Below, piece after piece: positions 8,937 to 60,906 of a stretch of 64,000 bases of DNA. The stretch's first letter is position 1, and every line of letters begins with the position of its first letter. Source of the DNA: Bilabrum cf. latius (Eukaryota); assembly GCA_965178125.1 (NCBI GenBank), contig OZ237752.1, positions 496,001-560,000 of the forward strand, in the 5' to 3' direction. Both the position numbers and the translations under genes were made by a program. A model generated the notes under the pieces. The model was given only the letters and a program-made list of their open reading frames with translations. It was not told the DNA's origin and did not search any database.

Positions 8937-10595
8937 TCAGTCACAAATCTACATGTGCCTCTTGAGACTGCCTGCCTCCCCGAATGACTTGCCGCACACG
9001 CTGCACTCGTGCTTGCGCTCGCCCAGGTGCACCACTGACATGTGCGTCTTGAGACTGCCTGCCTGCCCAAATGACTTGCCGCACACGCTGCACTCGTGCT
9101 TGCGCTCGCCCAGGTGCACCACTGACATGTGCGTCTTGAGATGACCTGCCTGACCAAATGACTTGCCGCACATGCTGCACTCGTGCTTGCGCTCGCCCAG
9201 ATGCACCACAGACATGTGCCTCTTGAGACTGCCTGCCTGCCCGAATGACTTGCCGCACATGCTGCACTCGTGCTTGCGCTACCCCAGGTGCACCACTGAC
9301 ATGTGCCTCTTGAGACTGCCTGCCATTCCAAATGACTTGCCGCACACACTGCACTCGTGCTTGCGCTATCCCAGGTGCACCACGGACATGTGCGTATTGA
9401 GATTGCCTGCCATCCCAAATGACTTGCCGCACACGCTGCACTCGTGCTTGCGCTCGCCATGATGCACCACAGACATGTGCGTCTTGAGACTGCATGCCAC
9501 CCCGAATGACTTGCCGCACACGCTGCACTCGTGCTTGCGCTCGCCATGATGCACCACTGACATGTGCCTCTTGAGATGGCCTGCCTGCCCAAATGACTTG
9601 CCGCACACGCTGCACTCGTGCTTGCGCTCGCCCAGGTGCACCACTGACATGTGCTTCTTGATATTGCCTGCTTCCGCAAATGACTTGCCGCACACGCTGC
9701 ATGCATGCTTGCGCTCGCCCAGGTGCACCACGGACATGTGCCTCTTGAGATGGCCTGCCATCCCAAATGACTTGCCGCACACGCTGCACTCGTGCTTGCG
9801 CTATCCCAGGTGCACCACAGACATGTGCGTCTTGAGACTGCTTGCCACCCCAAATGACTTGCCGCACACGCTGCACTCGTGCTTGCGCTCGCCCAGGTGC
9901 ACCACTGACATGTGCGTCTTGAGACTGCTTGCCTGCCCAAATGACTTGCCGCACACGCTGCACTCGTGCTTGCGCTCGCCCAGGTGCACCACTGACATGT
10001 GCGTCTTGAGACTGCTTGCCTGCCCAAATGACTTGCCGCACACGCTGCACTCGTGCTTGCGCTCGCCATGATTCGTCACAGATACAGGTCGCCTCAAGCT
10101 CTGCATTGACCCCAGCACATTGCCGCTTTCGCGCTTCTCCTCTCCTATTGGCAAACCCTAGCCTCCCTTCCCCTTCCGTTTCTTTACCCTTGCCCTCTAC
10201 TAGTCAGGCTCGCTATCACCGCCAGACTGCTCGTGTCGGCTGCGCTTCTGGCCAGCCGAGGCACTGCCAGCGCCCCCTGTGCCTGCTTTCAGACTCGCCT
10301 GCATTATCGATGGCACCATGCTATGCGACATCAAGCTGCCGGCTGCTTCCGAAACGCCGGTTGCAGCACCAAATCGACGTCCTGCACTTGCTCCAGCCTC
10401 AAGAGACCGAGCCTTCTCCTTCCCACCTGTGCCATACCTGCGCTGCAGTCCACTCGGTCTCGATATAACCAATGCACCAGACCGGCCAAGATCACCGGAA
10501 GCGCCCGTCTCCTTTCCACTCGCATTGCTTGAGTCACTGTCACTGTCGCTCACGAGGTCGATGACTTCGTCGGACTTCGATCTGCTAAGCGCCAT
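8937..10595 (-). CDS. Multi-C2H2 zinc-finger protein, 13 tandem fingers (87-bp unit), about 552 aa; 7 in-frame TAG
   Basis: HECSVCGKSFG...LK.HMSVVHLGERK repeats. TAG at 10200, 10197, 10158, 9801, 9366, 9279, 8949; TGA at 8937. Confidence 0.88.
8949..10070 (-). repeat. 87-bp coding tandem repeat (zinc-finger array)
   Basis: Near-identical 87-bp units varying mainly in the recognition-helix codons. Confidence 0.9.
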
Positions 10596-17600: not shown

Positions 17601-17640
17601 TCGGGCTCACTCTCCTTCCCTCTGGTCCTTTGGTGGATGA
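14623..17640 (+). CDS. LINE reverse transcriptase and C-terminal region; 4 in-frame TAG
   Basis: KATGPDNI, FRPICY, QAGFRVG, FFDVKGAFD, GTPQGEVLSPALF, GYADD. TAG at 15133, 15349, 16597, 17524; TGA 17638-17640. Confidence 0.85.
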
Positions 17641-19136: not shown

Positions 19137-19372
19137 ATTACTTTGTGTGGTTTCTTTACCCTACAAATTATTCTGGTATTCTGGTATCCTGGCTACTTCG
19201 ACCGGGAGGATGCATCTCATCACTGATCAGCTCAAGTATTGAAAAAAGAACAAACGAGTCAAAAGTACATTCCACCCCAACTACAACGACCACCACGGGG
19301 GAACATCGCATCGGGCACGACGAACAGATCAACAAGCTCACGCCGCAGTACGCCCTTGGTCCTCGCCTCCGT

Positions 19373-29778: not shown

Positions 29779-32700
29779 TCAAAGCTCCTCCCCTGATGCC
29801 CTGTCGGTGCCTGTCCAGCTCTCGGTCAGCTCATTGACACTCCGATGCCGGTTCCCGGCAAGCCGCTCCCTGATCCCAACTACAAATTCCTGTAGGCCGG
29901 CCCCAAGCGCAATGCCAGTCTGGGCCGGGCCCATCGCCGCGTACCGGCACCCTGCGTCGCTCCAGCAAGATTCCGAGGACGGCTGCCGCGTGCTGCTGCT
30001 CTATGTACCGCTGTCCTATCCACCAGCGATGCCGGTTTCCTCCAGCGCTGCCTCTAGCTATCCAGTGGTAGCAGCCAGGAGCAGCGCCACGAACAGCAAC
30101 ACGACAAGAGACAAGCACACGCCCACCACCCCGCAGCAAGATCCCGACGATGATGCACCTGCCCGCCCCTCGCCCACCTAGGCCCTCAGGGCATCGATCT
30201 GCCGCGTTGCCTCCTCATACGCATTGGTCGCGTCCGTGCACCGATGCTCAAGCCTCTCCACCTCCTAGGCCAAAGCGCCCTCCTCACCCTGATCGAGCCC
30301 GGCTCCACCCGATGAAATTTGTTCCCTGAGCTCTCCCAGTTCGCCCTCCAGCCGCTGCAGCGCCTCCCTTAGCCCTTGCGCGTCCGACTCGCTGTTCCTC
30401 AGCCGAGTCCTCACCTCCTCGAAGGCCTGCTGTGCCTCCTCTGCACGCGCCTCGGCTCGCTTGCTGCGCTCCGCTGCAGCTTCCAGATCCTTCCTTAGGG
30501 ACTCGGAGCGGGCACGCTCCTGCTCCAGCTCAACTGCATAGGCCTAAGCGTCTGTTTCAGATACGGCTGACCCTCCCGCTGCAGTACCGGCGGCGGCCTG
30601 CTGCTGCCTGAGACCCTCCATCTCCTCCTGCATGCGCTTGGACTTGCCTTGCTCCTCCTGCAGCTGGCTCTGGGCAGTGTCCAGCTTGCTTTGCAGCTGT
30701 GCAAGCTGCCTCCCCGTGGCAGCCCCCGAGTGCCTCTGTGTTCTCTTCATGGACTCCAGGTCGCCGATCCTCGACTCTGCGTCCTTGGCGCGGGCCTCCA
30801 GCGCCTGCACCTGCTGCTTTGCCTGCGCGGCGGTTTCTTCCCACTTGCTGGCGGATTGCCTCGCCTGTTCCAACTCCTGGCGAAGCTGTGCCTGTGCCTC
30901 ATCCTGGGCTTGTTGCTTCTGCTTGAGCTGCTGCAGCAAGCTGGCATCCGGGCCTTCGCCCTGCACATGGGCTGGCGAGCTCGGGTTGCCTACACCAAGC
31001 GGAGCAGGAGCAGCGGTTGAACTGGAAGGATCTGCTGAAGCAGTGGAAGCGTGTGCACCGCTGGCTGCGTGCTCCCTGCCGGCAGCGGGAGCACCTGCGG
31101 CCCCCGAAGACCCAGAGGTGCTAAACTCAAGGGCTTTACGGATCTCGTCCATCCCAGGAAACTATTCCCCGGCTGCAGCGCCTCGACTGAGATTGTTCTC
31201 TATAGCTGTGCCTTGCTAGTTTCCCTCACCGGTGCGCACAGGGTTGCTCCCGTCGGCAGCACCCGCTCCATCCATGGCACCTGCTGGCACAGCGACTTGC
31301 TCGGATCCAAGGCCGCCGGCTCGGTGGGACCGCGAGAGGGCTTGCTCGGCCCTCCTGCCCGCCGAATCCACGGAAGGTGGCAGCACCGGCGGGACGGGAG
31401 CCCTTTGCCCTGATGAACCCTTGCCTCTCGAGGCTGACCCACGGCCACTGGACCTTGCTCGCATGGCGATGGCATGCCTCTGGCGCTGGCGACTCGCAGC
31501 TCGGAGCGCCTTGGAGGGAGAGAACGCGCGAAATGGGCGGCGGGACATGCCCGACCTGCTCAACCCGCCTGCTTGGCTACGGGTGGACGAACCAGGCGCC
31601 GCAGGGGGACGCGTGGACCCGCCCGGCAGCGAGCGATCGACATCCTGCGAAGCCTCCGCCGCCTGCGGTCCTGCCCATGTTGATGACAGTTTTGGCGGCG
31701 AGGTGTTGCTTTGACCGCCCGAGTTAGCGTGCGCATCCCCCGCTGCTGCTGCTGCTGCTGTCTCTCGAGGACTCGCCGGTGTGGACACGAACATGCCTCG
31801 CGTGTCGGAGACGATCTCGACGCTGCGGTCCTGGGAGGCTGCACCCGTGCTGCCGCCCTCTTGGCTACCCCGTTCCTGCTCCTAACCCTTCCCCTCCTCT
31901 GTGCGGGCGAGTCCAGGGACCCTTGCGACGGCGGGGGAGCCCACGGTCCCATCCAGGTCGAGTCCAGTGCCAGCGAGCAAGCTATCTGCAGCTGCCTTCT
32001 CGTCCGTGCTTTGGGCGCCATCTTCACTGCACTGCTCCTGGTCTTTGATGAAGGACACTGCGCCCTCGTACACTGTTCCCTGCACCCTCCGCTCAAGTGC
32101 CGCCCTCATCCGGTCGTCCACCCTGCGTGCTACCGCGGGAGAGAGCGCCCCGCTCATGACGAGCTTCTCCAGGGGCGTCGGTGAGCTGGCCTTGTCCTCG
32201 TCCTCATCCTCATCTTCCTCGTCTTCGTACAGACCGTCATCTTCCCCTTCTTTGCGTTCCTACAGCCCGCCCTTACGACCCCCTGGCCGAAATTTCGGTG
32301 AAACATCGGCCCCGTGTGCAGCTGCGTCCTACTGCCACTCGTCCCCCACGAGATCAGCGGGGTCGATCAACGAGCCTGGGTACTGCGCCCCATCTCCGTG
32401 CCCGTGCCCGTGCCCGTGCCCGTGCCCGTGCTCCAGAAGACCCGCCGATCCCGCCTGTGCCTGGCTGCTGCCCAGCATCGTGGACGCCTGCCCCGCTGGG
32501 GCGCCTCTGGCACCGGCATGTGCCACCGGTGACAGGGCCTCGGTGGCCTTGGCATCAGCAGCTGTCTGCGGCGCTTTGTCGCCCTACGGCTCCTCGCCCA
32601 TGCCCCACTCGTCATCATCGAACTCCAAGTCATCCGCTTCGCCCCACGCAGCACCGACATCGCCGGACCCGGGCTGCTGCGTTCCACTGGCCGGCATCGC

Positions 32701-33424
32701 GCCGGCCGCTGCTCCATGACGCGGCTCTGACGGAGCAGCGAAGCCATCAATGAAGCTCGCCTCGCCGCCTGCCCGGCTCTATCTCGCATTGCTGGGGGAT
32801 TGATCACCCCTTGGGGTTGCGCCCGAGTAGTTGCTGTACAGGTCGGTGTCCATGCCGGGTGTTCGACCAAGAGGTGGAGTCGCCCCGGCATCGAATGTGC
32901 TGGATCCAGGCCTCGTGCCTCGATGCGGAGTGAACGGTGACATGATACCGGCATACGCATCTTGAGATGCATCGTCCCGTCTCACGACTTCTTTGTATGA
33001 AGCGGTCAAGAGCATCGTGGTGAGGGTTCCATTCGACGTTTCTCCGAACGCATGATTCGGGTATATCGCGGAGGCGTTTTCAGCTGCCACATGCTCCATG
33101 AACTTCAAAAGTGCGAGCTTGTCTGGAACTCGGCGGGAGCCGCTGACCTTATCGGGTGCTTCGCCAAGTGCCTGCTTTGCAGAGGCTATCGTGTCCGGCT
33201 TCAATGCTCCTCCAGGTAGCTAGAGGCTGATCAGAAGATCTTCATAACGCTTGATATCTGCGTTTACGCTGGAACAAAGTAAAAGTCGTACCAAAATCAG
33301 TGGCAATCGTACAAGACCCTAACTTCGAGAAAACCAAAATGAACATACCTAGCTGGTCTTGTGCGTCGCCGTACTCAAACACGCGATCTAGTAGACCTGA
33401 ATACGACCCCATCAAGCGCTCCAT
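29779..33424 (-). CDS. Long low-complexity/coiled-coil protein with a C-proximal transmembrane helix, ending GEEL; intron 33258-33348; many in-frame TAG
   Basis: ORFs ending at 32779, 32329, 31882, 31216 and 30544 are in one frame linked by TAG. Heptad-rich 30180-30950; TM VVGVCLSLVVLLFVALLLAA about 30070-30130; TGA 29779. Confidence 0.7.
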
Positions 33425-33587
33425 GGCACAATTTGTGGTGAGGCCCGCTGTCCAGCTGCTCTGTTCAGGTTTCATGACTGTTGGTGGCAGCGGAACCACT
33501 GCGCCAGCGGCGCCTTGGCTGTGATCGAGATCTACAAGTTGGCACTACCAGCACACTGTTGCACTTTTAAAGCGGCATTGGTCCGCT

Positions 33588-36409
33588 ATGTCGAGTACAG
33601 ATGGGACCGCTGCGGCGGATCTAAGCGAGCACGCCATTCCATTTATAACCTTCGACGACGATGCGAAAGAGGGTGGGCAGTACAAGATCAACCCAGAGGC
33701 GATAGAATACTTGCAATCCATCAAGGAGAAAATCGCTATTGTATCCATAGCAGGTGAGTCCGCTCTTGATTCGCGCTGGATAGCTTCTGAACTCTTCGTT
33801 GCTGCCAACGGTTGCCGTGCTGAGATCGCATCCATTCCTTCGTCACTGCAGGTCTATACAGGACTGGCAAAAGCTACCTATTGAATGCGTTGATGGGAAA
33901 ACCAGCTGGCTTCACCGTTGGCCCGACCGTGAAGGCCTGCACTCAAGGCATCTGGCTGTGGGGAAAGGCGATTCCAGCGATACCCTTCGAGGGTCCCACT
34001 AATCCAACTGAGGATGGAAAGGAAGTGGACACACGCGGTTTGAAGGTTTTATTTATGGACACAGAGGGTCTTGGCAGCACGAAACGCTCGGAGACGTACG
34101 ACACGCGCGTGTTTGCCCTCGCGCTGCTCCTGTCCTCTTGCTTCGTCTACAACAGCGTGGGCACGATCGACGGTAGCGCCATTTCCAAGCTCTCGCTTGT
34201 AGTGAATCTCACAAAACACATTCATGTTAGGTCGCATGCAGGCTCCGGCAAGCCTGCGGCTCCTGGTGCGGGAGCGGGTGCCTCGTCGGGAGCTGGCAGC
34301 AGCAGCAGCAGCGGCGGCGGCGGCGGCTCGTAGCCAGTGGAGGACAGCGGCACTGAGTACAGGCACTACTTCCCGCAGTTTGTTTGGGTGGTAAGAGACT
34401 TTGGGGTGAAGCTGGAGAGGAACGGGCGGCACATTTCCAGCTCCGAGTACCTGTCCTACGCCCTGGAAGACGAGCCCGGAGTGGACGACTCGACCGAGCG
34501 GAAGAACGTGGTGCGGCGGATGCTGCGGGAATTCTTCCCCGAAAGGGACTGTGTGACAATGGTGCGGCCCATCAGCGACGAAAAGAAGCTCAACCGCCTC
34601 TTCGATGTCCCCTGGGAGGAGATCAGGCCACAGTTCAGGAAGCAGCTGGAGGGGCTCAGGAGGAAAGTGCTGGGCGGGGCCAAGCCCAAGATCCTGTTCG
34701 GGCAGGCGCTGGACGGTCCCATGCTGGCCTCTCTAGCTGAAGCGTACGTGGAGGCGCTGAACCAGCAGGGCACCCCGGTGATATCCACCGCCTGGGACAG
34801 AGTGGTGGAGGGGCAGTGCAGGGAGGCAGCGGAGAAGGGCCTCAAGGTGTACCAGGAGGCCATGAAGGCGAGCATGAGGGCGAGGGGGATGATGGGCCCG
34901 CCCGCGGGGGAGGCAGGGGGGCCCATGGGGGCGAGTGGGTCGGGCGCCACGCAAGAGGCCCTGGGGCTGGGGGGCGGGATCGTGCTGGAATCGAGCGGGA
35001 TGGAAATGGCGCACGCGGAGTGCCTGGGCGCCGCGCGCGACACGTTCCGCAAGGAGGCCGTGGATGACGTGGCTAAGGCGGGCGAGCACGAGCAGCTGCT
35101 CCTGCAGCGTGTGACCCAGCACCGGACTCGCTGCGACAGGGTGAACGAGGATAACAGCAGGGTGCTGTGCGAGGGGGCTCTGCAGTACCTGCACGAGATC
35201 GCGTCGAGGGAGCTGATGGAGGCGCTGGAGGCGCAGGGTGAGGAACAGGTAAGTCGTGGTGCTCAAGAAGACAAGGAGGAGCAAAACCAACAGCAGCATG
35301 AGGCAGATGCTGACGGCTCCGAGTCGCTCCCCGCCGCGGTGCCCGCCACCCAGGTCGCCTCTGCGTACAAGCGGGCGGTGGAGAGGCTGCAGAGGGAGTA
35401 CCTGGGGATCGGGACGCCGGGGGAACAAGTGGAGGAAAAGCAACAGGCGGATAGCTCGGCTGGATCGCAGGGAACAAAAGAGCCGTCCGGCGGAGAGCCC
35501 GCGGCGCTGCCTGCCGGTCGTGGAGCAGGCCCCCGGAAGCACTCGTGCCTCGCCGGTTACCTCGTGGAGCAAGCCCCCCGCATGCTGGGCCAGGCAGCCG
35601 ATGCCTCGAGCAGGAGGCAGGTGGAGCGGGAGAGGCACCTGCGGCGGGCACTGGAGTCGGCGAGGAGGGCGGAGGCAGCGGCCCAGGGGCGCGCGCGCGC
35701 CACGGAAGAGAGTCTGGAGAGGGAGCGGAAGGAGGGCGAGCGAGCGCTTGCGCAGGCTGCCAAGGAGGCGGCGCTGGAGCAGGAGAAGCACGGGCAGCTG
35801 GTGGCAAGCCTTTAGAAGGCACAAGCGAGCATGCAGTCCAAGTTCGAGCAGGGCATCGCCTTCGCGGAGCGGGTGCAGAAGGACTGCGAGGAGCGGGCGA
35901 GCGAGGCGGAGGCCAAAGCGAGCAAGGAGAGGGCGGGGGCGGGGGAGGCGAGGTCCGAGCTCGCGGCGGAGCTGAGGAGGAGGGGGGACAGCGCGGAGGC
36001 GCTTGCAGAGGCGCAGAAGAAGCTGCTGGAGGCGTCGGAGGCGCGGAGGCTGGCCGAGGGTTCGCTGGGCGAGGCGGTTTCGGCCAAGCAGGTGCTCGAG
36101 GAGCGGTTGCGGGGAGCGCAGGCGGAGCTGACGCGGCTTCGGGAGCAGAGCGAACTCTTGTACGACAAGGCCCGGTCGCAGAAGGAATTGCTTGGGCAGG
36201 CAATTGAGCAGAAGCAGGAGTGCGAGCTGCAGTGGGGCATGGCGAAGGCGCAGGTGGCCGAGCTGGAGTCCGAGAAGGCGGGGCTGGAAACAGACCTCGA
36301 GACGCTCGAGTCGCTCGCGCGAACCATGAAGGATGCCCTCGTTGCGCTCAGATAGGCCGGTAACCTGCAGCTGGACGAGCCAGAGCAGGAAAAATTCGAA
36401 GAGTTGTGA
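33588..36409 (+). CDS. Guanylate-binding protein (GBP/atlastin family) GTPase with long coiled-coil tail; intron 33754-33851; 3 in-frame TAG
   Basis: Splicing restores P-loop AGLYRTGKSYLLN. CTQGIWLW, DTEG, YNSVGTID, WVVRDF. TAG at 34331, 35813, 36353; TGA 36407-36409. Confidence 0.9.
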
Positions 36410-36513
36410 TCGATTGTTTGGTTCCGCACGACTGCGCGGCGAATAATGGTTGCGTGCACAACCGCAGATATGTCGCACTCGATGCAGGGGCACAACATTT
36501 CGCCACAATCTTA

Positions 36514-39500
36514 ATGCCCAAAGGGCGCCAGAACCGGCGCGATGCCGGTTCGAAGCGCTCGAATAAAGTGAAATAGACAGTTTCAAGTCATGGAGCTCCA
36601 TCAGACGAGGAGGACGTGCTTGATACTTGGACATCCATCCCGTCGTTGCCTTCCCGCTCCGATGGCTTCCAAGATGTCCAGTACAAGTCGGCGAGAGCCG
36701 AGACGCAGAAATGGCAGAAAGAAGAGATAATGGATGTCAATCCAGGGCTGCAAGGCCTTGGAATGCTCTCGTTTGAGGTGCTCGACCTGACACAGGACGA
36801 GGCTCGTGCGATTACCGACGTCGACCCCGCAGCTGCAGGCCACAGGGGCTCCACGAAAGCTGAACTGAAGTCCGCAAGCTCTAGTAAGGCAAGTAGTGGT
36901 GCCTCACACGATCATTTGCCGGTATCCGGCGCTAAACGCCCGTCTCGAAGCTCTGCTGCGTCTGAAGGAACAGGTAGCTCGGCGCGCAATGCAGCCGGAA
37001 AGAAACGCAAGCGGGATAGCAGCAAACAATCAGGTTAGCGAAACGCATATGATTCTGCTGATGACAGCAGTGATGACTTGTTTGAAGCTACTGCTAAGGA
37101 GTGGGCACCGCTGCGACTGCACCCGCTGTTGATTCGAGGTCTGGCACGGCTTGGCTTCACTAGTCCGACTCCAATCCAGTTGGGCTGCGTACCTCAGGCA
37201 ACTATGAAACAAAAGGTAAGACATGTGTACCTCTGCTGCTGTTATGTTTGTGTAACTTCTGTATGGGCAATGACGATTGGAATTAACCCAGCTCGCTTGG
37301 ACATGGATTCGACACTCATGGATGAAGAGCAATCTCGTGCAATCTCACACCCGCACGTTTCGGAGCCTTTCGTATACAGAAGTTTTTTGTTTGATTGACC
37401 GTGCTTCGTACTCGTCCGTTGCGTGCAACCATCGTGGTGTGCTTCTTCGATCCCTGCTATCCCATCGCAGGATGTAGTAGCTGCCGCTGAGACTGGCAGC
37501 GGAAAGACGTTGGCGTTTGGTCTTCCCCTGCTCCACGGAATTATCGAACGCCGACTTCGTGCAGGCATGGGCGTCCTCGCGAGCGGGCAGTCGCCTCCGA
37601 CCGCGGACGAGATCGAGGCATGTGAAAGGCACGGCGGAATCGAAGGCGTGGTGCCCTACAGCAAGGGGACATCGGAGAGGAGGCGCAAGGCGGGGTGGTA
37701 CGAACCCCAAGATGCCAGGCCCCGGTGGTCTAAGCTGCCTGCGCTCGTCATGTGTCCCACGCGAGAGCTGGCCCTGCAGGTCCGAAGCCACCTGGCCGCT
37801 GCAGCGGAGGGGCTGCTCGTCCGGGTCGGTGCTGTGGTGGGCGGCCTCTCCCAGGTCAAGCAGGAACGCGTGCTGGCCCAGCGGCCGGACATTATCGTGG
37901 CCACTCCTGGCCGTCTGTGGGAGATGCACGTGCAGGGAGCGGCCTATCTCTCCGACCTGAGCAGGCTGCAGTACCTGGTGCTGGATGAAGCCGACCGCAT
38001 GGTGGACAGGGGCAGGTTCCAAGAGCTCGCTTCTCTTCTGGCAGAGGTTAATGCTCCCTCCAAGTCGTTAGAACAAACCTACGACAGCGTGCTACTCGCC
38101 ATGCAGGCCGAGAAGGCCAGCAGGGCGGCCAGCAGCGGTGCAGGGGATGATGATGATGATGGCGAAGCGGCCGGCAGCGATGCTGAGCGCGTCGAGGAGC
38201 TTGATGAAGGGGCATCAGACAGCGATGCACCCCCCGCGTCTAAGAAGAGGCGCAAGGGCAAGGCCCAGAAGAAGAAGGTCAAGTCCAAACAACAGGCCAA
38301 GACGAGACACACAGTGCTGGTGGACCCGCCCAGTGGCACACGCAGGAGGACCTTCCTGTTCAGTGCCACGCTGGCATTCGCCGCGGCAGGCACGTCGTCC
38401 GACATGGCAGAGACGCTGGTGCGGGCAAAACTGGCGGCCAGGGCGCGCGCAGACAAGCGCAGGGCCGGCACGGAGGGCGGAGGGGACCTGGTGGCAGCTC
38501 AGGAGGGCAGTCGTCAGGCGGACCGCGTTACCAAGAAAGCCAGGCGGAGGATGCTGGAGGAAGCTAGGAGGACGAGTGCCCTCGTTGGCCTGTTAAGGCA
38601 CGTGGGCGCTTCGGAACACCCGGCTATGGTCCGCGTGGCGAAAGCCAGCGAGGTCGAGGCGGCGTCTGCCTTGGCCTCGGAAGAGGCCATGGAGAGCCTG
38701 GCCAAGATCTCGCTGCGAGTGGGAGAAGATGTTATTCTCAGGGGCGAGCACGCCCTGAAGCCCCTGTCGGACCTAGTGAATGCCAGCGAGGCAGAGCAGG
38801 CACCTGCGAAGTAGTCGGCGCGGATCGCAGACAGCTCCAAGGGGACCTCGGCAGCGGCAGCCGCGGCCAAGAAGAGAACCGCAGCCTCAGCCCTCACCCT
38901 GCCATCCAGCCTGAAGCTGGCCAAGATGTCGGTAGCCGAAGACGAGAAGGACGCGGCCCTGTACTATTTCCTGAGTACTCACCCGGGAAGGACGCTCGTG
39001 TTTGTGAACCGCATCGGGCAGACGAGGCGGCTGGCGGGGCTACTGGGTCTGCTGCGCATGCCAGTGCATGCGCTGCACGCCAAGATGCAGCAGCGGCAGC
39101 GCCTCAAGAGCCTCGAGCGGTTCCAGCGTGAAGACGGGAGCGTGCTGGTGGCAACTGACGTGGCTGCTCGCGGCCTGGACATCCCCGGCGTGACACACGT
39201 GGTGCACTACGACGTGGCCATCGACCCCGAGACCTTCGTGCACCGCAGCGGGCGCACGGCAAGGGCATCCAAGGAGGGCCAAGCGCTCACCCTGGTGGAC
39301 CCGGCCTCCCACTCCCGGTACGTGAGGTGCTGTCTGGCCTGCGGGCTAGAGGGTGGCATGGACACGATGGAGGTGGACTCTAGGTTCAAGAGGCAGGTGG
39401 ACGACAGGGTGTACGCCGCGGGTCAGGTATGGAAAATCGAGTCCAAGAAAACCCGCGCGGCCACGAAGGCGTCGTGGGTCTAGCGGCAGGCGGGCGCCAT

Positions 39501-40140
39501 GGACTTGGACGTTGACGAGCTGACCGCCAAGGAGGCCGGCTTGAGCACGAGGGCCGTGGATGGAGACTCTGAGTCGGACGACGAGAGCAAGGTGATGCGC
39601 AGCAGGGAGGCAAAGAAGGAGGCGAAGGCGCTCAAACGGTGGAAGGGACAGCTGTCCCGGCTGCTGGGTGAGCGGTTTCTTCCCGCCGGCGTGTCGCAGC
39701 GCTTCGTGGCTGATGGTGCGGTGCAGGCGTCCCTCGCCGGCGCCTCATCCATGCGGCCGGGTGCAGCTGGGCCGGCCCGGGGAGGCGCGGGCGCGCAGCA
39801 GGATGGAAACGAGGACGATGAAATGCCAAGCGATGCCTCGGAGCTCGAGTGGGAGTCTGGGAGCGACGAGGACGAGGACGAAGAGGTGGACGAGCGGTCC
39901 GCGCCGTCGTCGTCAGCCTCGTCCAGCCTGGTCGCACGGCCGGCCCCTCGTTCCGGAATCGTAGCTGCGGTCGCGCCGGGGGCTGCGTCAAACGTTATCG
40001 TCTAGTCCATCCCGTCCATTGTTGCGCGGTCGGGCAAGTCAAGTCGTGTTCGCAGACTGCAGGCTGCTGCAAAGAGCGCAGCTGGTGTGGTATCTGCAAG
40101 GCGAGGCAGGAAGACTGGGAGGCTACCAGGTGCAAACTGA
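36514..40140 (+). CDS. DDX24: DEAD-box RNA helicase DDX24/MAK5; intron 37216-37470; 5 in-frame TAG
   Basis: Q-motif GFTSPTPIQ, AAETGSGKT, PTRELA, TPGRLW, DEADRM, FSAT, HPGRTLVFVN, ARGLD, HRSGRTARA. TAG at 36574, 37036, 38812, 39481, 40003; ends TGA. Confidence 0.9.
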
Positions 40141-40310
40141 ATGTGCATGCAGCCGAAACAAATTAATCTTAATGTCGATCTGTCCATCGCATAACCAAAT
40201 CAAACTGTAAGCCACCGTAATTTGTCGACCTCCAGCACAAGCACTCCTTCCTCGGGTGCAGTGCGTTTCGACCAGTTAGGACTCCGGATTCCAGGTAGGT
40301 AGCCCCCACG

Positions 40311-43300
40311 TCAGTCCATGGATCTGACGTCGAACCCAGAGTACGTGAAAGGCAGCCCGTGACTGGAGTTGCGAGTGCGTTCCGGGCTCTCGGCCTCGCT
40401 GAGGCCCTCGTCATCAACCTGCTGGGCGATTTGCTATGCCCTCTGGCCAGCAGCAGCACCAGAGCGGTCTTGCGGCTCAGCCAGATCATCGTGGGCATCG
40501 TCGCCTATCGTCACTTCCCCTTCGGACTGCCCTTCATCTGCTACCACGCCAGGAGACTCTGCCGCAGATGCGCCTCGTCCTGTCCCTGCAACAGCCGCCG
40601 TGGACTCGAGCGCGCCGCTGACTCCCTGGGGCACTTCATCATGGACGCCGCCAGAAGCGCGGTAGTGCATTGCACTTTCACCCTCTGGCACAACAGCCTC
40701 AGACACACCTTCAGGGATGGCCCCTTCTGACACACCTTCCGGCATCGCACTCTCTGACGCACCCTCCGGCATCGCGGCACCAGAAGCAAATCCGAGCCCG
40801 CCGGACAGCGGACTAGACCCCAGCTGGGGACCACCCGTCTTGTACTGCTTCCACGCATGCTAGATGACGAACGCAGCGGCTAGCTTATCGATATCATCCT
40901 GATCGTCTCCCTCGGATTCGACCCTCCACCACCGCTGGATCAGCAGCGCGGCTTCCTCGCGATCCCTCGTGGATGCAGCGGCTGGCTCAGCTGGGGGCTA
41001 CGCTGGTTGGCTGCTGGCAGCCTCTTGTTGCGGAGCACCATATTCTTCGCCTGGTCCGCTACGCTCCGAAGAGCTCTTCTCTGTAGCACCAGAGTCAGCT
41101 CCATGCTCCAATTGCGCTGGTGGTTCAGTTTGCGGAACATGACCCTGGGAGGCAGCGGCAGCCAAGTTGTTGCCAGCACCGTCGTGCTGCAGCCTAGCTT
41201 TGTACATGTTCCGGGTAACAAAGCCGCGCCCGGCGGCCTGAATCATAGTTGCGGCTTGCTACTGCTTGCGCGCTGCTTCTTCCTCCTCGGCCTACTTGCG
41301 CGCTGCTTCTTTCTCCTCGGCCTGCTTGCGCGCTGCTTCTTCCTCCTCGGCCTACTTGCGCGCTGCTTCTTTCTCCTCGGCCTGCTTGCGCGCTGCTTCC
41401 TCCTCCTCGGCCTACTTGCGCGCTGCTTCCTCCTCCTCGGCCAGCCTTCGTGCGTCATCTCGCATACTGGCCAATCTCCGTCGAGCACCCCAACCTCTTG
41501 CTGCAGCCTATATACACGTAGCGCACTCATCCCTGGCAAGACTAGCAGCCATCACCGATCGCAACTCAGCGCTCATGCGCCGCCCCTGGCTGCCCCGGTA
41601 CACGCGCTGGATCGCGCCTGCCGATGCCTCACGCTCCTGCGCAGCACACACACGAGCGCGCGCCTCCCCCATGCGACGCCGAGCCAGCCACTGACGCACC
41701 GCGCACTGAGCACGCACAGCCTGCTCTTCCCGCAGACTAGCCATGGCTGCATCTGCACGCAGACCCGCGCTCATGCGCCGCCCCTGGCTGCCCCGGTACA
41801 CGCGCTGGATCGCGCCTGCCGATGCCTCACGCTCCTGCGCAGCACGCACACGATCGCGCGCCTCACCCATGCGACGCCGAGCCAGCCACTGACGCACCGC
41901 GCACTGAGCACGCACAGCCTGCGCTTCCCGCAGACTAGCCATGGCTGCATCTGCACGCAGACCCGCGCTCATGCGCCGCCCCTGGCTGCCCCGGTACACG
42001 CGCTGGATCGCGCCTGCCGATGCCTCACGCTCCTGCGCAGCACGCACACGATCGCGCGCCTCACCCATGCGACGCCGAGCCAGCCACTGGCGCACCGCGC
42101 ACTGAGCACGCACAGCCTGCGCTTCCCGCAGACTAGCCATGGCTGCATCTGCACGCAGACCCGCGCTCATGCGCCGCCCCTGGCTGCCCCGGTACACGCG
42201 CTGGATCGCGCCTGCCGATGCCTCACGCTCCTGCGCAGCGCGCACACGATCGCGCGCCTCCCCCATGCGACGCCGAGCCAGCCACTGACGCACCGCGCAC
42301 TGAGCACGCACAGCCTGCTCTTCCCGCAGACTCGCCATGGCTGCGTCTGCACGCAGACCCGCACTCATGCGCCGCCCCTGGCTGCCCCGGTACACGCGCT
42401 GGATCGCGCCTGCCGATGCCTCACGCTCCTGCGCGGCACGCACACGATCGCGCGCCTCCCCCATGCGACGCCGAGCCAGCCACTGACGCACCGCGCACTG
42501 TGCACGCACAGCCTGCTCTTCCCGCAGACTCGCCATGGCTGCATCTGCACGCAGACCTGCACTCATGCGCCGCCCCTGGCTGCCCCGATACACGCGCTGG
42601 ATCGCGCCTGCCGATGCCTCACGCTCCTGCGCGGCACGCACACGATCGCGCGCCTCCCCCATGCGACGCCGAGCCAGCCACTGACGCACCGCGCACTGAG
42701 CACGCACAGCCTGCTCTTCCCGCAGACTCGCCATGGCTGCATCTGCACGCAGACCCGCACTCATGCGCCGCCCCTGGCTGCCCCGGTACACGCGCTGGAT
42801 CGCGCCTGCCGATGCCTCACGCTCCTGCGCAGCGCGCACACGATCGCGCGCCTCACCCATGCGACGCCGAGCCAGCCACTGGCGCACCGCGCACTGAGCA
42901 CGCACAGCCTGCGCTTCCCGCAGACTCGCCATGGCTGCGTCTGCACGCAGACCCGCACTCATGCGCCGCCCCTGGCTGCCCCGGTACACGCGCTGGATCG
43001 CGCCTGCCGATGCCTCACGCTCCTGCGCGGCACGCACACGATCGCGCGCCTCCCCCATGCGACGCCGAGCCAGCCACTGACGCACCGCGCACTGAGCACG
43101 CACAGCCTGCTCTTCCCGCAGACTCGCCATGGCTGCATCTGCACGCAGACCCGCGCTCATGCGCCGCCCCTGGCTGCCCCGGTACACGCGCTGGATCGCG
43201 CCTGCCGATGCCTCACGCTCCTGCGCAGCACGCACACGATCGCGCGCCTCACCCATGCGACGCCGAGCCAGCCACTGGCGCACCGCGCACTGAGCACGCA

Positions 43301-46300
43301 CAGCCTGCGCTTCCCGCAGACTCGCCATGGCTGCGTCTGCACGCAGACCCGCGCTCATGCGCCGCCCCTGGCTGCCCCGGTACACGCGCTGGATCGCGCC
43401 TGCCGATGCCTCACGCTCCTGCGCAGCACACACACGATCGCGCGCCTCCCCCATGCGACGCCGAGCCAGCCACTGACGCACCGCGCACTAAATAGAGGTA
43501 GCAGACGATGATTGTGCTTGGTGCAACTGCACTTTAGCTCGCTGTTCGCTCGCCTTCCGTCTTCCCAGCCATCCTCTGGTGATGGCCTGGGCAGAAACCG
43601 CCGTGCGCGTGCGCTTTTGTGCCAGCTCGGCTTGCTTCTGCCTGCGTCGCATTGCGTGCCGCACTCGTGCGCCACGCACCATAGACTGCATCCTGCACAG
43701 GCACCACATCCCATCAATCCATGCCTGGGCCCGCATGCGCCCTCTGTGTCCCCGCCATGCCTTCTAGATCTCCACAGCGCACTGATCTTCCTGCACCTGT
43801 ACCCTGGTGAGGTAGTTCTCCACCGTGCGGTGCACGTCCGGCGATGCGACCGAGGGATCCCGCGGGCGCCCGCTCCCCTCTGGGTCCGTGAGTGCCTTCC
43901 ACATCGGCGTGTAGCTGGCCGGTAGCCACGCCTCGAACTCTTTACTGACTACGACCTTGAGAGGTTTCGTCTTTGGCAGCTTGCTGGCCGACACCCTGCT
44001 GCTGGTGCTGCCAGCGGCAGAGTCTCGCCGAGATCTGGTTTTGGTGCCTCGGCGCTTGGGCCTCTCCTCCTCTTCGTCGTCTGCTGACACCTCCAGCTCT
44101 GCCGGTTCTTCTCCTGAATGGGCGATGCCGTGCAGTGAACCTCTCATTGGCTAGGTCTCTTTCCTGTCGCTGATAACAACTTTATTTGCACTGACGGCTG
44201 CGGGCACTGGCTAGACCGGGCTCGAACCATCACCAGGAGACAAGGGCCGCTGCGCGCTCGCTGAGGGCAGCTCCCGTGGCAGCTATCGAATGGGCCCGGT
44301 CACCACCGCATCAACGGTCCTTGCACCTCTATGAGCAGACCCAGTGTGCGGGTCCTCGTGACCGTCCGCAATACCGTCAGACGGTTGCGCAAGGAGGGAT
44401 GACGAGGCGAGGTAGGGCACCGCTGCATCTCGCTGTGCCTGCACCTGAAGGTTGATCCCTGTTTGTCGTGAGTGGGACTTTGACGAAGAGGATACTTTTG
44501 TCGAGCGGCTCGGACGAAACCCTCCGGTCATGCTGAGCGGGTCAGTTGTATCCAGCTTGCCACCAGCAAACGGTGACGGATGCGGGTTGAGGTGCTTCAG
44601 CTGCTTTGATATGGGCTCGTTTCCTTGCGCTTTCTCTCGAAGTCGGCGTGAAGCAGCCGCGGCTTGCAGCACTGAGGCGGGGTCGTCGTGCTTGTGCTTC
44701 CCTCCGAGTGCCTCCTCGAGGCGACTCTCCACCAGCGGGCCTCGTTTCTGCATCGATCGGGGGAGCACCTTCGTGGCCAGTCGAGAGGACAGCCCTGCGC
44801 CAGGGGCCGGCAGGGCAGGGGCAGGCAGGGCACTCAAGGAGGCAGTGGCCTCGTTCATCACACTGCGCTTGCTGTCCTGCAGGACCGATCGACGGAGCCT
44901 GCGAATGTCCTTTGGGTTGTTGAGATCGATTGGCCTCCGACGTGCTTTGGATGGCCTGCGTTTGCCAGCCGACCCGGCGGGTGCGGCAGAACGGCTCGGG
45001 ACTCTCGATTCAGCTTCTGAGTCCGAGCTGGTTGTGGCGCAGTCTGCCTCTGCCTCTTGCAGGACTCGCCGCCGCACCAAGTGGTTGTCAAACACTCGTG
45101 CGTCTGGCTTGGCTGTCGAGTCAGCCCTCCTGACACCCACCGAGTGCAACCGCTTGTCAAAGGCGTGGCCACCGCGCACCCCAGGCCTTCGCATGGGCGA
45201 CAGCTCTGTGCCTGACCCAGATACGGGCCCAGCACCAGGCGCCTTGACCTGCATGCGATCTCGGCCACGTCTGGAGAACCTCTCGGGCAGCAGCACGTCC
45301 CTTGCTGGGGGCTTGCCCAGCCGCGGGTGCCCGTGTACCATCGCTGGACTGAGGCTGGGGAAGGAGGCCATGTCCTGCTGATCCACCCGTGGAGTAACGA
45401 CGGGACTGCTACCATACTCCCCGCGCAATAGCTGCTTGGCTCGTTGCCTGGGTTGAAAGCCTGCCAGACCTGCCAGGCTCCTCTGAGAGCTGCCGTGCGG
45501 ATCGCCAGTGGGCAGCTAACGCTGTGACCCACGGACCCCCCGCACCTGTGCATCCGATACCCCGGCCCCATCACGCACTTCTTCCACGAGGTCCAGCGGA
45601 TCGACACCCTCAGGAGCGTGCACTGCCCTGTGCCTCACGCCCGACTTTCTGCCGCGGCGAGCGCTGGAGAACTTGAAGGCATCGTGTGGGGGACCTGCGC
45701 CTGAATCGCCAGTGGGGGACGCCTGTGCCACTGCCTGCGGGTCACTCGTCACACGGGACGCCCAACCACTCGCTGCTGTCGTGGCTGACCACGGTCGCGT
45801 CCTGCCCACAAGTGCTGGTGGGTGTTCCCCAGCTGCCCCTGTCCCTGCCCCTGTGCGCCTCCTCTCCGACCCTGGCCCTGGCCCCTGCCCTACAGTCTCT
45901 GACACTGCCGCCGATGAGGTGGGGCTGGGCGTGTGCCCCCTAGGGAGCGGGGACACGTCCCTTCCCCCCGACGTGTGCACTTGGAGTCCGTTCCGCCCAA
46001 CCTGCGGCATTCGTGATCGTGACGAGTGCTGCGGTGGCTCGGCGGGCGCTGCTTGCGACGCCCGGGCGGCTCGCACCCCGGAGGGATTCGTGGTGTGTGC
46101 GGCCCTTCCTATGTCCGGCAGCATGTGCTCCCTCCTTCTGAACGCCTTTTCGTCTTGCATTGCCTGCCATTCGTCCCTTTCTCTCCGCCCCCACCACGCG
46201 TCATCGTTCCGCAGCCTCCTCCTCGCCTCGCTCTCCCGCGATGCTGCAGCCACCTCGGTGCCCACGGGGCCACCCACCACGGGCACCCCGTAGGCATTCA

Positions 46301-46916
46301 GGGTCGGTCTCATTGTGTAGGATACAGGGGACACAGGCTGCGGTCCATTTGTACTACGAGTGTTGCGATCACGAGGATGACCAGCAGCACGAGAGTCTGT
46401 TGCACCGGCAGGTGCAGTAGCATGAAGTGACACCCCCCCTGGCGATTTCTGCACGTGTTTGGCCGGCTATACTCGACTTTGAACGGCATAATATTCTTTC
46501 CTACCGATTGCTCGGCGATGCGTAGCGCTTCTAGGCCGAAATGCTCTGGCTGCCGGTCTCGCGTCCTCGTATGCTACTCTTGCCAAGTCGTGCGTTGCTT
46601 TGGCCCGAGCTGTGCTAGGTCGCTTCCTTCGCGAATGTTGGCTTGGTAGTCGACTCTGGTCTAGATGCTGCCCTATGCTAGCTGTTCGGTACCCTTTTTG
46701 CGGTGATGAAATGCCGGGTTGACGAGCAGTAGGCACTACGCGCACCGAGGAGCTCGGCGTGGATTGAGCTGAGCTTTGTGCTGCACCAGAGTGACTAAAT
46801 GGGCGTGCTTGTATATCATCGGTATGCCTAGAATCGTTCGACTACGCGATAGGCTTGCGACCACGAACTGCGACCACCGGTACAATGAGCAAAAATGGCG
46901 GATAGGGACGATGCAT
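40311..46916 (-). CDS. Giant IQ-motif repeat protein (about 2200 aa; start uncertain); about 16 in-frame TAG
   Basis: All ORF fragments from 46467 to 40434 share one frame joined by TAG. Many IQxxxRGxxxR motifs; ends TGA 40311. Confidence 0.8.
41255..41445 (-). repeat. 30-bp coding repeat (AEE[E/K]EAARK[Q/TAG]), about 6 copies
   Basis: TAG at 41412, 41352, 41292 alternates with CAG at 41382, 41322, 41262. Confidence 0.92.
41570..43490 (-). repeat. 198-bp (66-aa) coding tandem repeat, about 10 copies, two IQ-like motifs per unit
   Basis: Unit AIQRVYRGSQGRR...RAQCAVRQWLARRR; differences between copies are mostly synonymous. Confidence 0.93.
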
Positions 46917-48465: not shown

Positions 48466-51400
48466 TCAAGACGCCTCCGCTTGGAACCGCTCTTGGCTGC
48501 TAGGCTCCGAGAGGCTGTAACGCTTCGCCTTCTAGTTGCCACTCAACTGCGAGTCAGCGGAACTGGCAACCCTCTCGCGCGCGTGTTTCGACCGGCAGCA
48601 CATGGACAGGCCATATAGCGCGCCTAGAAGAATCACACCCCCGCCAACCGCACCCGCAATAATGATCCCGATCTAAACTTCCTCGTCATCTGCGCCCTCG
48701 CCGTCCCCAGCCTCGCCAGAGGGTGGAGCAGCGAAGGAGCGCGCACCTGCAGCCAACTGCGCCTGCAGCAAGTCGCTGACCAGATTCGGGGTACCTCCCA
48801 CCACGGCACCATCCGATGCAGCGACCACCACATACACGGGATCATCCTCCGACTCGAACGAGAAGCCTGCAGCGGCGGGATCTGCCCGCACCGCAGCTGC
48901 AGTGAGCCCGCTCTCGATTGCCGCTCGCTCACTAAGCAAGCCAGATACTGCTGTAGCAACAACAGATTCAGTTGCCTGCACAGTAGCGAACCCCATTGAT
49001 GCATTTTGAGTCACACTGGCCGCGAGAAGCATGCGCACCTCGTCGGCGCCAGAACCCGAAGCGGCTTGCAGTGTCCTCGCTGTCCAACGCATGGCCCGAA
49101 GTCTTCTCGACACTGCCTCGGCAGCGCCTGTGTCGCCATACACATCCTCATTGCCACCTGAAGCATCCGCCAAATCCATCTCCGCTGCAATCGTCAGCTG
49201 GGTACCACCCACCACCCAGCCGGGCGGCAGCAGCCCCTGGAGCATAGCCCCGAATCCACCCCGCACTGCAGCAAGACCGACCGCACTCTGCACGAGCCTG
49301 CTGCCCCGACGAGCAGCCAGCACCAATTGTACCACTGCACCAAGAGAAGCTTCCTCCTCGCTGGCACCTGCACGCAGGGACAGGCCGAGCGTGTCCGTGA
49401 CTGCATCGTCCTCTTGGTCCAACTGCGCCATGGACGGCAAGTCGGGCAGTATCGCCAGCGTAGATGCCAGAGACGATGATCCAGCAGAGGAACTGGACGC
49501 TGGCGGCAGGCAGCGAGTGGGTCTCGTCACGTTGGACATGGATGCGTCGATCAGCGGCCTACACACGGTGCTCCCGCTACAGTCAGCATCGATAGAGCAG
49601 GCTCTACCAGTCTCGCACAGCCCGCATGTCTCCTCAGATGCACCGCATGGTGGTAAAGCGTCAACTATCGCTAAGCAGGTCGATGCGCTCCCCTCGTCAT
49701 CGCACTACGGCAGGGCCGCAGACATTGCAGCCGGGCAGGCCGCTCTGGTGATCAGCTCGTTAGGGCTGGGGCACTGCGTCCCACCATGGGCCGGCAGACT
49801 GAGCACTATCCTGGTAGAGTACAGCCAGCCGCCATCTCCACACTCATTGGAGCACTTGTCTGCCTCTACTGCAAGGGACAGTTCGCAGTCCCTGGCTTGC
49901 GGGGAAGCAGACGGGGATGGGCTGGCCGTGGGGCTAGGGCTTGCAGCTGGCTGGTGGGATGAGCTGGAAGATGGCGATGGCGATGGCGACGCACTCGATG
50001 CTACGGCGGTGCTTGAGCTGGAGGGTGTTGGACTGGACGTACTGGCACTCGTACTGGCACTCGTACTGGCACTAGCACTCGCGCTTGCGCTAGAGGACGG
50101 CGTGCTGGCGACTGGGGATGTGCTGGGGCTACCTGACGGGGACATCGAAGGGCTGCCACTCGCGCCGTTGCTGGCACTTGGGCTTGGGCTCGTCGATGGG
50201 CTACTGGTAGTTGATGGAGATGCGCTAGCCGTGGTGCTGGGTGTCGGAGACACTGCAGCTGGTGTTGCGCTAGCTGTAGCTGTAGCTGTAGCGCTGGGTG
50301 TTGGACTAGCCGCAGGCGGTGACGGGCTCGGCGTCGGCAGCACACATGTCACGATCGTGTCCGGCTCTTCTTCCGGACTACTGCACAGAGCGGGAGGCAT
50401 GGTCGCCACAGCACCTTCGCAAAAGGCGCTCAGCTCGATGCCGTCGGTCGTCTGCCCCGTGCGCGCGATGCAGTCTGCCTCCACGATGAGGCCATACTTT
50501 AATGCAGAGCGTCCCGGGATGAGCCTGTCGTCCACTCCAAAGAACTGAGTGTAGTCGGGTCCCTGGACCCCCCCATCTGTGAGCAGGTTGAAGCCATCGC
50601 CAGCATTCCTCGGGTCATAGATCCTACTGCCACTCCTGGTTGCAATCCCCACGGGTCGGAGGTAAAGGTAAGTCCCGTCAAAATAGTAAGTATCGCCCCT
50701 GGATTGTCTCACTGCCTCCACCGAGTCTACCTCGGCAAAATCTACCTCGCACACCCGCCTGGCGTTGGGCGAGCATCCATCGATGGACCCCTTCACCGTG
50801 AATGAAGTACCAGGGGGGTACGCCAACGCCACAATCAGCGCGTCGGTGTGTTTCACCTAGATCTGACGAAACGTGACCTTCTTGGGCGCACCCTTGGCGT
50901 AGCTCACGAACCACCCGCCTGCCCGCGTGTGGTTGAAGGGACCCACCAGCTGGGGGTCATACCCGATCGGGGCGCTGTCATTCGTGCCCCAGTGCGAGAT
51001 GGTGCCGGCCTGCACGCCGTACATGCTCGCTGCGTTGTTGGTGTTCTTGCCGGGGGCCGTCTCCTCCCCTAGGTAGGCATCCATGGCAGCGACCTTGAAG
51101 AAGGCCTGGTCGCACAGCCACATGGGGTACTGGTAGTTGCGCTTGGCCTCGCACTGCACCGATGCCAGCGAGTCATTCCTGCGCGAGAGCCTCCAAAACG
51201 TGGTCTCTGGCCTCCGCACGAGGTCGTTGTTATCCTCCTTGTGCACGATACCCATGGATCCTGCGAGTGTGGGCACACCCCTTCGGGTTAGCGAGCCGTC
51301 GTAGTCAAGGAGGTTGCCATGGTACGCTCCATACCTGGCCTTCTGGCCGATGTCAAACCCAATCAGACCGTCGTCGTATGGCTCCTGCACGTAGGTTATG

Positions 51401-56600: not shown

Positions 56601-57789
56601 GTGCTTGTGCCACAAGCACGTCGACGACTACGTTGGTGCCATCCTTCCTTGTGTAGATCGCGTCCGCGTACCTACCTCTCTCCTTGAACAGCCCACGTGG
56701 TTTCATCGTTCTACGAAATCCTACGGCGGTGTTGATGATGTTGCCGAGGATCCCTTCGATTTCCCCACTGCCTCGCGTGGCGAAGCCCTTCTGGAATGTG
56801 TGCTGTTTTCCTGATCCGCACCGTGCCCAATGCAGTGGGTCGTGCAAATATCCCTCCTTGCCACACCTGGGCATCGGGCACGTGTGGTTCTTCTCCTTCT
56901 CGAGGTCGTGCTGCCCCTCTGTCGTCAGCTTGGTCCGCAGCTGAGCGATGGGGCGCGCTTTGACGTAGGGCACGTACAGCCTGGCGCATACCTCCTGTTG
57001 GAAGACTGCCTCAGTGATGCCTCCGTGGCACTGCCTGATGGGTTCAGCTGTGTGTGCACTCCTGCGTGAGCGAATTGCGATCCTCACGTCCTGCACCTGT
57101 TGCCGTTGTTGCCACGTGTAGTCGAGGGGGGTCTCGCCCAACAGTTTGCCTGCTTCGTGCTCCAACATAAAACGTTCGCACTAGGCGTACGCTGCTGCAG
57201 CCCTGAGCAGGCTCTGATGGTTGCCTCCCATGATGACGCGCTCTGGTCCTGCCTACTACAGCTTCAGATGCACCCAGTCTGACAGGTTCTTACTCTCCAT
57301 GAGCCATGCTGGGGGTTTTGGTATCGCCTTCTTTGCTCGAGCGAGACGATCCGTCCCGGTGGACGGTCCCCGTTCTGCGGGTGGGGGTGGAGTCGGATCT
57401 CCGGGGATCTCGAGTGATTTGCCAGGCGGGGGCATGATCACGTTTGCCAACTTGGGTCCTGTCTGCGGGTCTCGAGCAGCTGCTTGGAACTTCTGTGAGT
57501 TCCATACTGTCTGTAGGAAAGTGGGAAACAAATCGGTGGCGAGAGGCTGGAATGGCTATACGTTCCGCTCGAGCTCGTTGGGCAGTTCCTTCTTGCCCCA
57601 AATCAGCCTCTTCATCTTGTCCAAGGTGTACCTGAGGGCCCAGTCTGCCACCTCCAGCAGGGGGGCACTGTGCACGCCAAAGGAGGGAGCCCGCTGCTCA
57701 ACCTCTCCATCTCTCGCCGGCTCCATTCGTGGTTGCACATTACTTTGTGTGGTTTCTTTACCCTACAAATTATTCTGGTATTATTCTGG
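53683..57789 (+). mobile_element. Non-LTR retrotransposon copy 2, 5'-truncated just after the YADD motif, with intact antisense RLE ORF
   Basis: Near-identical to 15815-19180 (offset about 37865), same right end and TATTCTGG tail. LINE frame ends TGA 55505, with TAG conserved at 54462 and 55389. Confidence 0.85.
55816..57726 (-). CDS. RT-less zinc-knuckle + restriction-like endonuclease (CRE/R2-type RLE) protein, 636 aa; 7 in-frame TAG
   Basis: ATG 57726. CPMPRC...HWARC knuckle; RYAD...VVVDVLV...K..Y...DFVVLHTGKLGTGAWKVLEELA. TAG at 57556, 57256, 57253, 57181, 56497, 56461, 55840; TGA 55816. Confidence 0.72.
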
Positions 57790-60764: not shown

Positions 60765-60906
60765 TCGCTCAGCCAGTCACTTTTCGTTAATAGCGTGTGA
60801 TTCATAAATCGGATTTCAGCTGACGCGGTGACGTCTGCTCGACAAACTCGCGACAAATGAACACAGAAATGCCCGCTCTTACCTGCAATCATTCGACACT
60901 TCAAGT

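Follow-up and report, generated by a model that had tools for sequence, protein, structure and literature searches.

UAG as a probable glutamine codon in the nuclear genome of a putative bicosoecid-like stramenopile

Introduction

In nuclear genetic codes, a change in the meaning of UAA nearly always goes together with one in UAG, and the exceptions come mostly from uncultured or poorly assembled organisms. Passages of two papers (PMC5304391, PMC11687900) describe UAG as a glutamine codon, with UAA as a stop, in Iotanema spirale (Fornicata), in the phyllopharyngean ciliates Hartmannula sinica and Trochilia petrani, and in Protocruzia tuzeti; no decoding tRNA is identified for these cases in the same passages. 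In Iotanema, for which there was no genome, a CUA tRNA was predicted, eRF1 carries T32G, and UAA is the dominant stop (passages of PMC5304391). The ciliates have a GC content of 27-54% and end 87-98% of their genes in UAA; no suppressor tRNA was detected in them, and no evidence of dual UAG use is given for the phyllopharyngeans (passages of PMC11687900). UAG alone has also been reassigned to other amino acids: to Leu in the rhizarian exLh, whose eRF1 is altered at Leu69 (PMC5304391, in part), and to Ser in Scotinosphaera (cited in passages of PMC11687900). In the UAR = Gln codes of Tetrahymena, Paramecium, hexamitids and Ulvophyceae, a CUA tRNA reads TAG as Gln, and UAA is Gln too (PMC11687900, in part).

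We analyzed a stretch of 64,000 nucleotides (hereafter the window; contig C18, 496001-560000) from an assembly of 48.6 Mb in 111 contigs, with a GC content of ~60%. The code that this genome appears to use makes the same assignments as that of Iotanema, an unrelated lineage, with UAG uncoupled from UAA; here, in contrast, the tRNA gene is known, Thr32 of eRF1 is intact and TGA is the dominant stop. It likewise agrees with the code of the three ciliates but differs from them in its higher GC content, its TGA-dominated gene ends and its CTA tRNA gene. As in exLh and Scotinosphaera, UAG alone would be reassigned, although to a different amino acid, and eRF1 residue 69, the one altered in exLh, is TAG-coded here. 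Unlike in the UAR = Gln codes, TAA ends the genes for eRF1, Rabs and a dynein, and a tRNA gene with anticodon TTA was not found in a DNA search and two pattern searches. A ciliate-type UAR = Gln code was rejected, since TAA ends defined genes and reading it as sense gave no gain in long frames.

Results

When TAG was read as sense, the window resolved into long, mostly non-overlapping frames, many of them with Pfam domains. Reading TGA as sense gave many overlapping frames without conserved-site support, and this option was discarded. In 133 stretches covering 759 kb, a non-random set of targeted loci plus 20 arbitrary stretches, TAG lay inside 86 of 107 long coding-like frames. The Gln-type codons of these 107 frames comprised 3944 CAG, 592 CAA and 387 TAG, so that TAG accounted for ~8% (387/4923). 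Closed long frames ended in TGA in 67 of 78 cases and in TAA in the other 11, some of these ends being intron read-ins; TGA, not TAA, is the main stop. The genome contains in-frame TAG at conserved Gln positions, no TAG at defined gene ends, a tRNA gene that matches the codon, and unedited contigs across TAG. On this basis we put at roughly nine in ten the probability that the nuclear code reads UAG as Gln genome-wide while UAA and UGA remain stops, UGA being the main one.

On the minus strand of the window, a frame of 2201 codons (40311..46916; ATG at 46916, TGA stop at 40311..40313) encodes a long protein of low complexity with numerous IQ-like motifs; a Pfam comparison gave it no credible family. 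The frame contains 16 in-frame TAG, 106 CAG and 29 CAA codons and no internal TAA or TGA, and it stays open solely when TAG is sense. Within it, six 30-bp units (41262..41441, minus strand) encode AEE[E/K]EAARK-Gln in a 60-bp higher-order repeat, as determined by TRF (period 30, 5.9 copies, 93% match) and by reading of the units. The initial annotation had described unit ends that alternate AAG TAG/AAG CAG three times and are followed by TAG CAA, and this is exact on the minus strand from 41441 to 41262. The TAGs stand at the ends of unit 1 (41412..41414), unit 3 (41352..41354) and unit 5 (41292..41294), and another lies in CAG TAG CAA (41259..41261). Alignment of the units also confirmed the proposed 60-bp unit, units 3 and 4 being identical to units 5 and 6, which indicates that the alternation is one mutation copied by duplication and not three events. 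In units 3 to 6 a non-synonymous GAA/AAA (Glu/Lys) change runs in the same phase as TAG/CAG, and the array alone is therefore no proof that TAG and CAG are synonymous. Its description as a homology-free internal control does not hold, because the array amounts to one mutation with non-synonymous changes copied along. The synonymy itself stands as a conclusion, on independent genome-wide evidence, and the argument drawn from the repeat is weak.

A pattern match over the 2201-codon protein placed TAG at the Gln of 3 IQ motifs and CAG at that of 21 others. A 198-bp array of 9.7 copies (41569..43489, minus strand) encodes IQ-like motifs in pairs, in which CAG provides the Gln. On the same strand, TAG takes the Gln position in a canonical IQ motif (I-x-KAWRGHRGR, 43764..43766), in an IQ-like motif (43488..43490), in a further IQ motif (I-x-AAARGWGARR, 41508..41510) and, as read by eye, in a degenerate IQ-like motif (I-x-HAWKQY, 40860..40862). 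At 43764 the related proteins P0373 and P0393 have Q, the fragment P0373 being 87.5% identical to the 2201-codon protein over 216 aa. Both of the relative's predicted proteins stop precisely one residue short of TAG 43488; judging from these protein ends, the relative may share this TAG. At TAG 44151, which lies in a variable region, the relative has Leu; this is counter-evidence. Gln at 17 of 20 IQ matches was dropped as support: the count is biased because the query itself had Q there, and the close relative alone counts.

Of eight sequencing runs listed, none of them recorded as RNA, four were compared over 30000-41560. Three GT-AG-type introns that are retained in X1 and X2 are missing from the contigs of X3 and X4, and from these spliced joints we judge X3 and X4 to be RNA, possibly with some DNA in them. 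The X3 and X4 contigs, which carry no strand information, cover 40215-41291 in one piece and 40178-41291 in two pieces, respectively, and include four TAGs, that at 41259 among them, with no changed letter and no gap. Thus, across these four TAGs, the X3 and X4 contigs give no sign of editing or splicing-out. Transcript-like cover extends beyond the array and ends shortly after the TGA; the array itself is bridged by none of the contigs listed.

Under the standard code, the TAGs would be premature stops in a decayed gene, would be spliced or edited out, or would be passed by leaky read-through. Such a reading could appeal to the lack of a credible Pfam family for the 2201-codon frame and to the fact that repeat arrays may be open by chance. 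However, the essential genes for eRF1, PRP8, Rabs and the 19 dyneins examined have in-frame TAG without in-frame TAA or TGA, TAG is kept in contigs of the spliced runs, and a dedicated CTA tRNA gene is present. We regard the standard code as having a negligible chance of being correct.

In a 13-finger C2H2 zinc-finger array (8937..10595, minus strand), TAG alternates with GAG (Glu) in 3 of 13 linkers; by repeat logic TAG would then be Glu, so repeat alternation cannot fix the meaning of a codon. In these TAG linkers the preceding codon changes too (GGC GAG to GGA or GGG TAG), and the 3' end of the gene reads ATG TAG ATT TGT GAC TGA, with the last finger cut off. Repeat-internal pairing was abandoned as a synonymy test after an automated search of the 107 frames, which left out the 2201-codon frame as below the coding-score threshold, returned the zinc-finger array alone (partners GAG and TCT). 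Among 7 variant pairings in retrotransposon copies, TAG was paired with CAG in 4, TAC in 2 and TGG in 1. This test was also set aside, as the copies are near neutral (139 synonymous and 154 other variants) and 7 pairings are too few. The 7 pairings count as counter-evidence to TAG = Gln.

Non-LTR retrotransposon-like elements with RVT_1 lie in the window at 14905-17640 and 53757-55505 on the plus strand and at 17955-19220, 55816-57726 and 59409-60776 on the minus strand. They have 26 genome matches, mostly 5'-truncated and most at 94-98%, and their frames use TAG as sense. The window also holds a perfect 14-bp array of 24.4 copies (582-922), a 129-bp array of 12.8 copies (12880-14531) that is open in two minus-strand frames and yields no clear protein, and a gene (48466-53592, minus strand) for a 1708-aa G8/CEMIP beta-helix protein that has a stalk rich in Ser and Pro and, at its C terminus, a membrane helix. 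An Atlas look-up of a thioredoxin from the window yielded nothing on lineage.

The amino acid was read from conserved protein sites. All 19 dynein heavy-chain loci examined carry in-frame TAG, 273 in total. Of these, 75 fell in columns with at least 6 paralogues, and 30 of the 75 in columns conserved to at least 60%; these 30 faced Gln in 21 cases, Glu in 6, and Ala, Arg and Val in 1 each, counts that are not all independent because dynein TAGs partly share columns. As a reference, dynein codons faced their own residue in 295 of 383 cases for CAG (Gln), 37 of 46 for CAA (Gln) and 537 of 613 for GAG (Glu). A profile fit to the dynein TAGs favored Gln, with a log-likelihood of -178 versus -217 for Glu. 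The switch-II Gln of Rab/Ras proteins, readable in 21 of 30 loci with L088 included and two spurious pattern rows left out, is encoded by CAG in 8, TAG in 8 and CAA in 5, and Gln46 of eRF1, a position with Q in 109 of 111 homologues, is TAG-coded.

Several sites are counter-evidence. Glu is in excess at the TAG columns (6/30, versus 27/429 for CAG plus CAA; Fisher p=0.015), and one Ras-like gene has TAG at the Glu right after the switch-II Gln. The two alignable TAGs of PRP8 face His (37/38) and Pro (36/38). The second eRF1 TAG, at residue 69, faces Leu in 116 of 119 proteins and Q in 2; Gln at this position occurs in two plants (P0001, P0002) and in 7 of 76 metagenome loci. TAG might be ambiguous, standing partly for Glu or, from the acceptor stem of the tRNA, for Tyr. 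Besides the 6 of 30 conserved columns with Glu, this would fit the TAG/GAG zinc-finger linkers, the TAG/TAC pairing at 2 retrotransposon codons, and a CTA tRNA that shares its anticodon-loop flanks and 14/16 D-arm bases with tRNA-Glu(CTC) and 12/14 acceptor bases with tRNA-Tyr. A mixture fit, on the other hand, gives Glu a share of 0.08 (95% interval 0-0.22) and Tyr 0.01 (0-0.03); 3 of the 6 Glu cases fall in a single alignment column, and in 5 of the 6 another paralogue has a CAG- or CAA-coded Gln. Moreover, GAG to TAG is a single-step route from Glu to Gln under the proposed code. We consider ambiguous decoding very improbable.

We also looked at whether TAG ends genes. Rab/Ras ends of the CC/CaaX type, recognized by eye in 20 of 30 loci, are followed by TGA in 16 and TAA in 4 and never by TAG; dynein ends, where the C-terminal motif was matched in 7 of 13, have TGA in 6 and TAA in 1. 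The 27 motif-defined gene ends thus comprise 22 TGA, 5 TAA and no TAG, which bounds the use of TAG as a terminator at roughly 10% of genes. A further possibility is that TAG is Gln within genes and, for a minority of them, a stop near the 3' end of the mRNA, resembling Condylostoma or Blastocrithidia; this would add to the preferred explanation without replacing it. TAG is slightly overrepresented among the last 10 codons of long frames (7/40 Gln-type codons versus 211/2743; p=0.03) and among the last 60 (p likewise about 0.03), the zinc-finger gene has non-coding-like codons after the TAG at its end, and eRF1 keeps its GTS and NIKS motifs intact. Against such dual use, TAG is absent from the 27 motif-defined ends, and among the 19 frames whose last 60 codons include a TAG, most look protein-like beyond it by eye and a few resemble intron read-in. 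We consider dual use improbable as an addition to Gln decoding.

One nuclear tRNA gene with anticodon CTA was found (C23:907607-907679, 69.8 bits), and a DNA search and two pattern searches gave no second copy; another "CTA" call at C7:264163, seen solely at a relaxed ARAGORN threshold, was dismissed as noise. The tRNA set is partial: 63 of 780 candidates were scored, and Asp, His and Leu tRNAs were not found in it. Compared with 33 other nuclear tRNAs, the CTA tRNA is closest to tRNA-Tyr (50/73), versus 44/73 for Glu(CTC), 44/73 for Gln(CTG) and 43/74 for Gln(TTG). Its nearest match is thus not among the cell's own Gln tRNAs, which is counter-evidence to TAG = Gln. The likeness to tRNA-Tyr comprises 12/14 positions of the acceptor, 8/10 of the anticodon stem, and C1-G72, whereas in the D-arm 15 positions match Gln(TTG) and 14 match Glu, and G73 matches Gln(TTG). 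Among 502 pairs of different isotypes, 12/14 in the acceptor was reached by 3 and 68% overall by 14, and the Tyr likeness is therefore suggestive only. Its D-arm and anticodon arm agree as well with the usual eukaryotic tRNA-Gln(CUG), which would favor an old Gln origin with a drifted acceptor.

According to passages of PMC9976931, eukaryotic Tyr identity depends on C1-G72 and A73; for E. coli TyrRS G73 is an antideterminant, and in bacteria it is a Gln determinant; Gln is inserted by several amber suppressors made from other tRNAs; those passages give no eukaryotic Gln identity set. A former tRNA-Tyr could have become the decoder: C1-G72, near-identical acceptor and anticodon stems and a 5-base variable loop would be retained, GUA would become CUA in one step, the change of A73 to G would drop Tyr identity, and a gained Gln-type D-arm would lead to Gln charging. 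That this is the first stramenopile nonstandard nuclear code and also that its UAG decoder is a former tRNA-Tyr now charged with Gln is a joint claim that we find doubtful. Whatever its origin, we infer that the CTA tRNA is charged with Gln.

No tRNA-Asp or tRNA-His gene was found in the 30 of 32 pattern matches scanned, which leaves these two tRNAs as possible ancestors of the CTA tRNA. A phage source was rejected, as a pattern of acceptor plus D-arm matched nothing in viral or prokaryotic genomes. Two phage contigs (L266:2985-3059 and L267), chosen by the D-arm/anticodon-loop pattern itself, have beside a tmRNA gene a CTA tRNA that shares this D-arm and anticodon loop; frames near these phage tRNAs have almost no in-frame TAG.

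Other features of the tRNA set were observed. Both nuclear tRNA-Ile genes found (L008 and L045; C32:91173 and C4:952092) have anticodon GAT, with AGC in tRNA-Ala and AGT in tRNA-Thr; the anticodon of eukaryotic tRNA-Ile is usually AAT. G37-T38 occurs in several tRNAs (Tyr, Trp, Arg, Cys). Multi-copy tRNA-like genes with anticodon CAT (C5:282086, C7:1154419, C3:1096994, C3:1133102 and others) are 69-73% identical to tRNA-Pro(TGG) and are without the usual initiator marks; this family is possibly a tRNA-derived repeat or another identity switch.

A genome search gave a single eRF1, the other two matches looking like Pelota. In human numbering, this eRF1 has G29A, N30D, S60V, N129S, K130H and a TAG-coded residue 69, with T32 intact. 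None of 120 homologues has its Ser-His pair at 129-130, and a metagenome scan of 79 loci found no close kin (best 72%). Passages of PMC3632111 link position 129 with recognition of the G in UAG and treat position 60 as unimportant; S60V is thus unlikely to be the cause of the code change, because changes at position 60 had no significant effect there. Leu69 and Thr32 are tied to UAG in passages of PMC5304391. Gln69 is also present in standard-code plants, however, and is therefore not diagnostic. GlnRS is ordinary when compared with the human enzyme.

A PRP8 tree of 39 sequences joins the organism first to P0147 and next to P0123/P0241 (0.997), and this set falls with named oomycetes and ochrophytes (0.999), the named outgroups being animals and green plants only. 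Judging from its accession prefix, P0241 may be Halocafeteria seosinensis. We infer that the organism is very probably a stramenopile and, with somewhat less assurance, probably a bicosoecid flagellate. Its PRP8 (L053, C24) sits on a long branch, and the N-terminal part of the protein contains a low-complexity insertion of roughly 170 residues. The 38.4-kb mitochondrial contig C111 encodes Trp almost always by TGA and has a tRNA with anticodon TCA, as in Cafeteria and Cafileria, where mitochondrial UGA is Trp with a UCA tRNA (passages of PMC6972860 and PMC6723347); this reassignment is common to other lineages too and hence not diagnostic for Bicosoecida. The nuclear genome of Cafeteria is likewise GC-rich and intron-poor, at 34-36 Mb and ~70% GC, and the same passages mention a nonstandard code for the mitochondrion only.

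All 15 closed long mitochondrial frames seen end in TAA, none in TAG, and cox1 has environmental relatives at 96% and 90% and no named close match. Two 18S types, 83% identical, are present: C95:6099-7900 (L031) and the rDNA array of C12 (L032), the latter short (1700 bases) and divergent. The 18S on C95, an 18-kb contig, looks dinoflagellate-like and probably comes from a contaminant or co-cultured organism.

Discussion

These data favor the following account of UAG decoding. The codon is most likely decoded by the single CUA tRNA, which should be unable to pair with UAA; for that reason UAA would stay a stop. The eRF1, with unusual residues beside its stop-reading motifs, probably ignores UAG, and its own synthesis would need read-through of two UAG codons. 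The repeat array that drew attention to the locus would have arisen from one CAG/TAG change in a 30-bp unit, copied by duplication of the 60-bp pair.

The code itself is known. New here are the lineage, the predominance of TGA as a stop and the CTA tRNA, now identified and mosaic in appearance. A search for a stramenopile or bicosoecid nuclear code change found none in the literature covered, which lay mostly outside subscription journals and took in passages of PMC11412368, PMC10553269, PMC4987115 and PMC10120064. It is possible, at well under even odds, that an earlier report or a note in an assembly record of such a case exists.

If the proposed code is correct, nuclear code change would extend to a new lineage and to a GC-rich, TGA-dominated genome, in contrast to the UAA-dominated cases known. 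With tRNA, eRF1 and GlnRS all identified, the loss of UAG recognition alone by eRF1 becomes directly testable. The former-Tyr origin of the tRNA, if true, would be a natural identity switch comparable to the engineered bacterial amber suppressors. Standard gene callers would truncate some four of every five long genes in this lineage, and a database protein of the relative already appears to be cut short where a TAG stands. Any virus or mobile element in such a host has to handle the code, and the retrotransposons already use TAG as sense.
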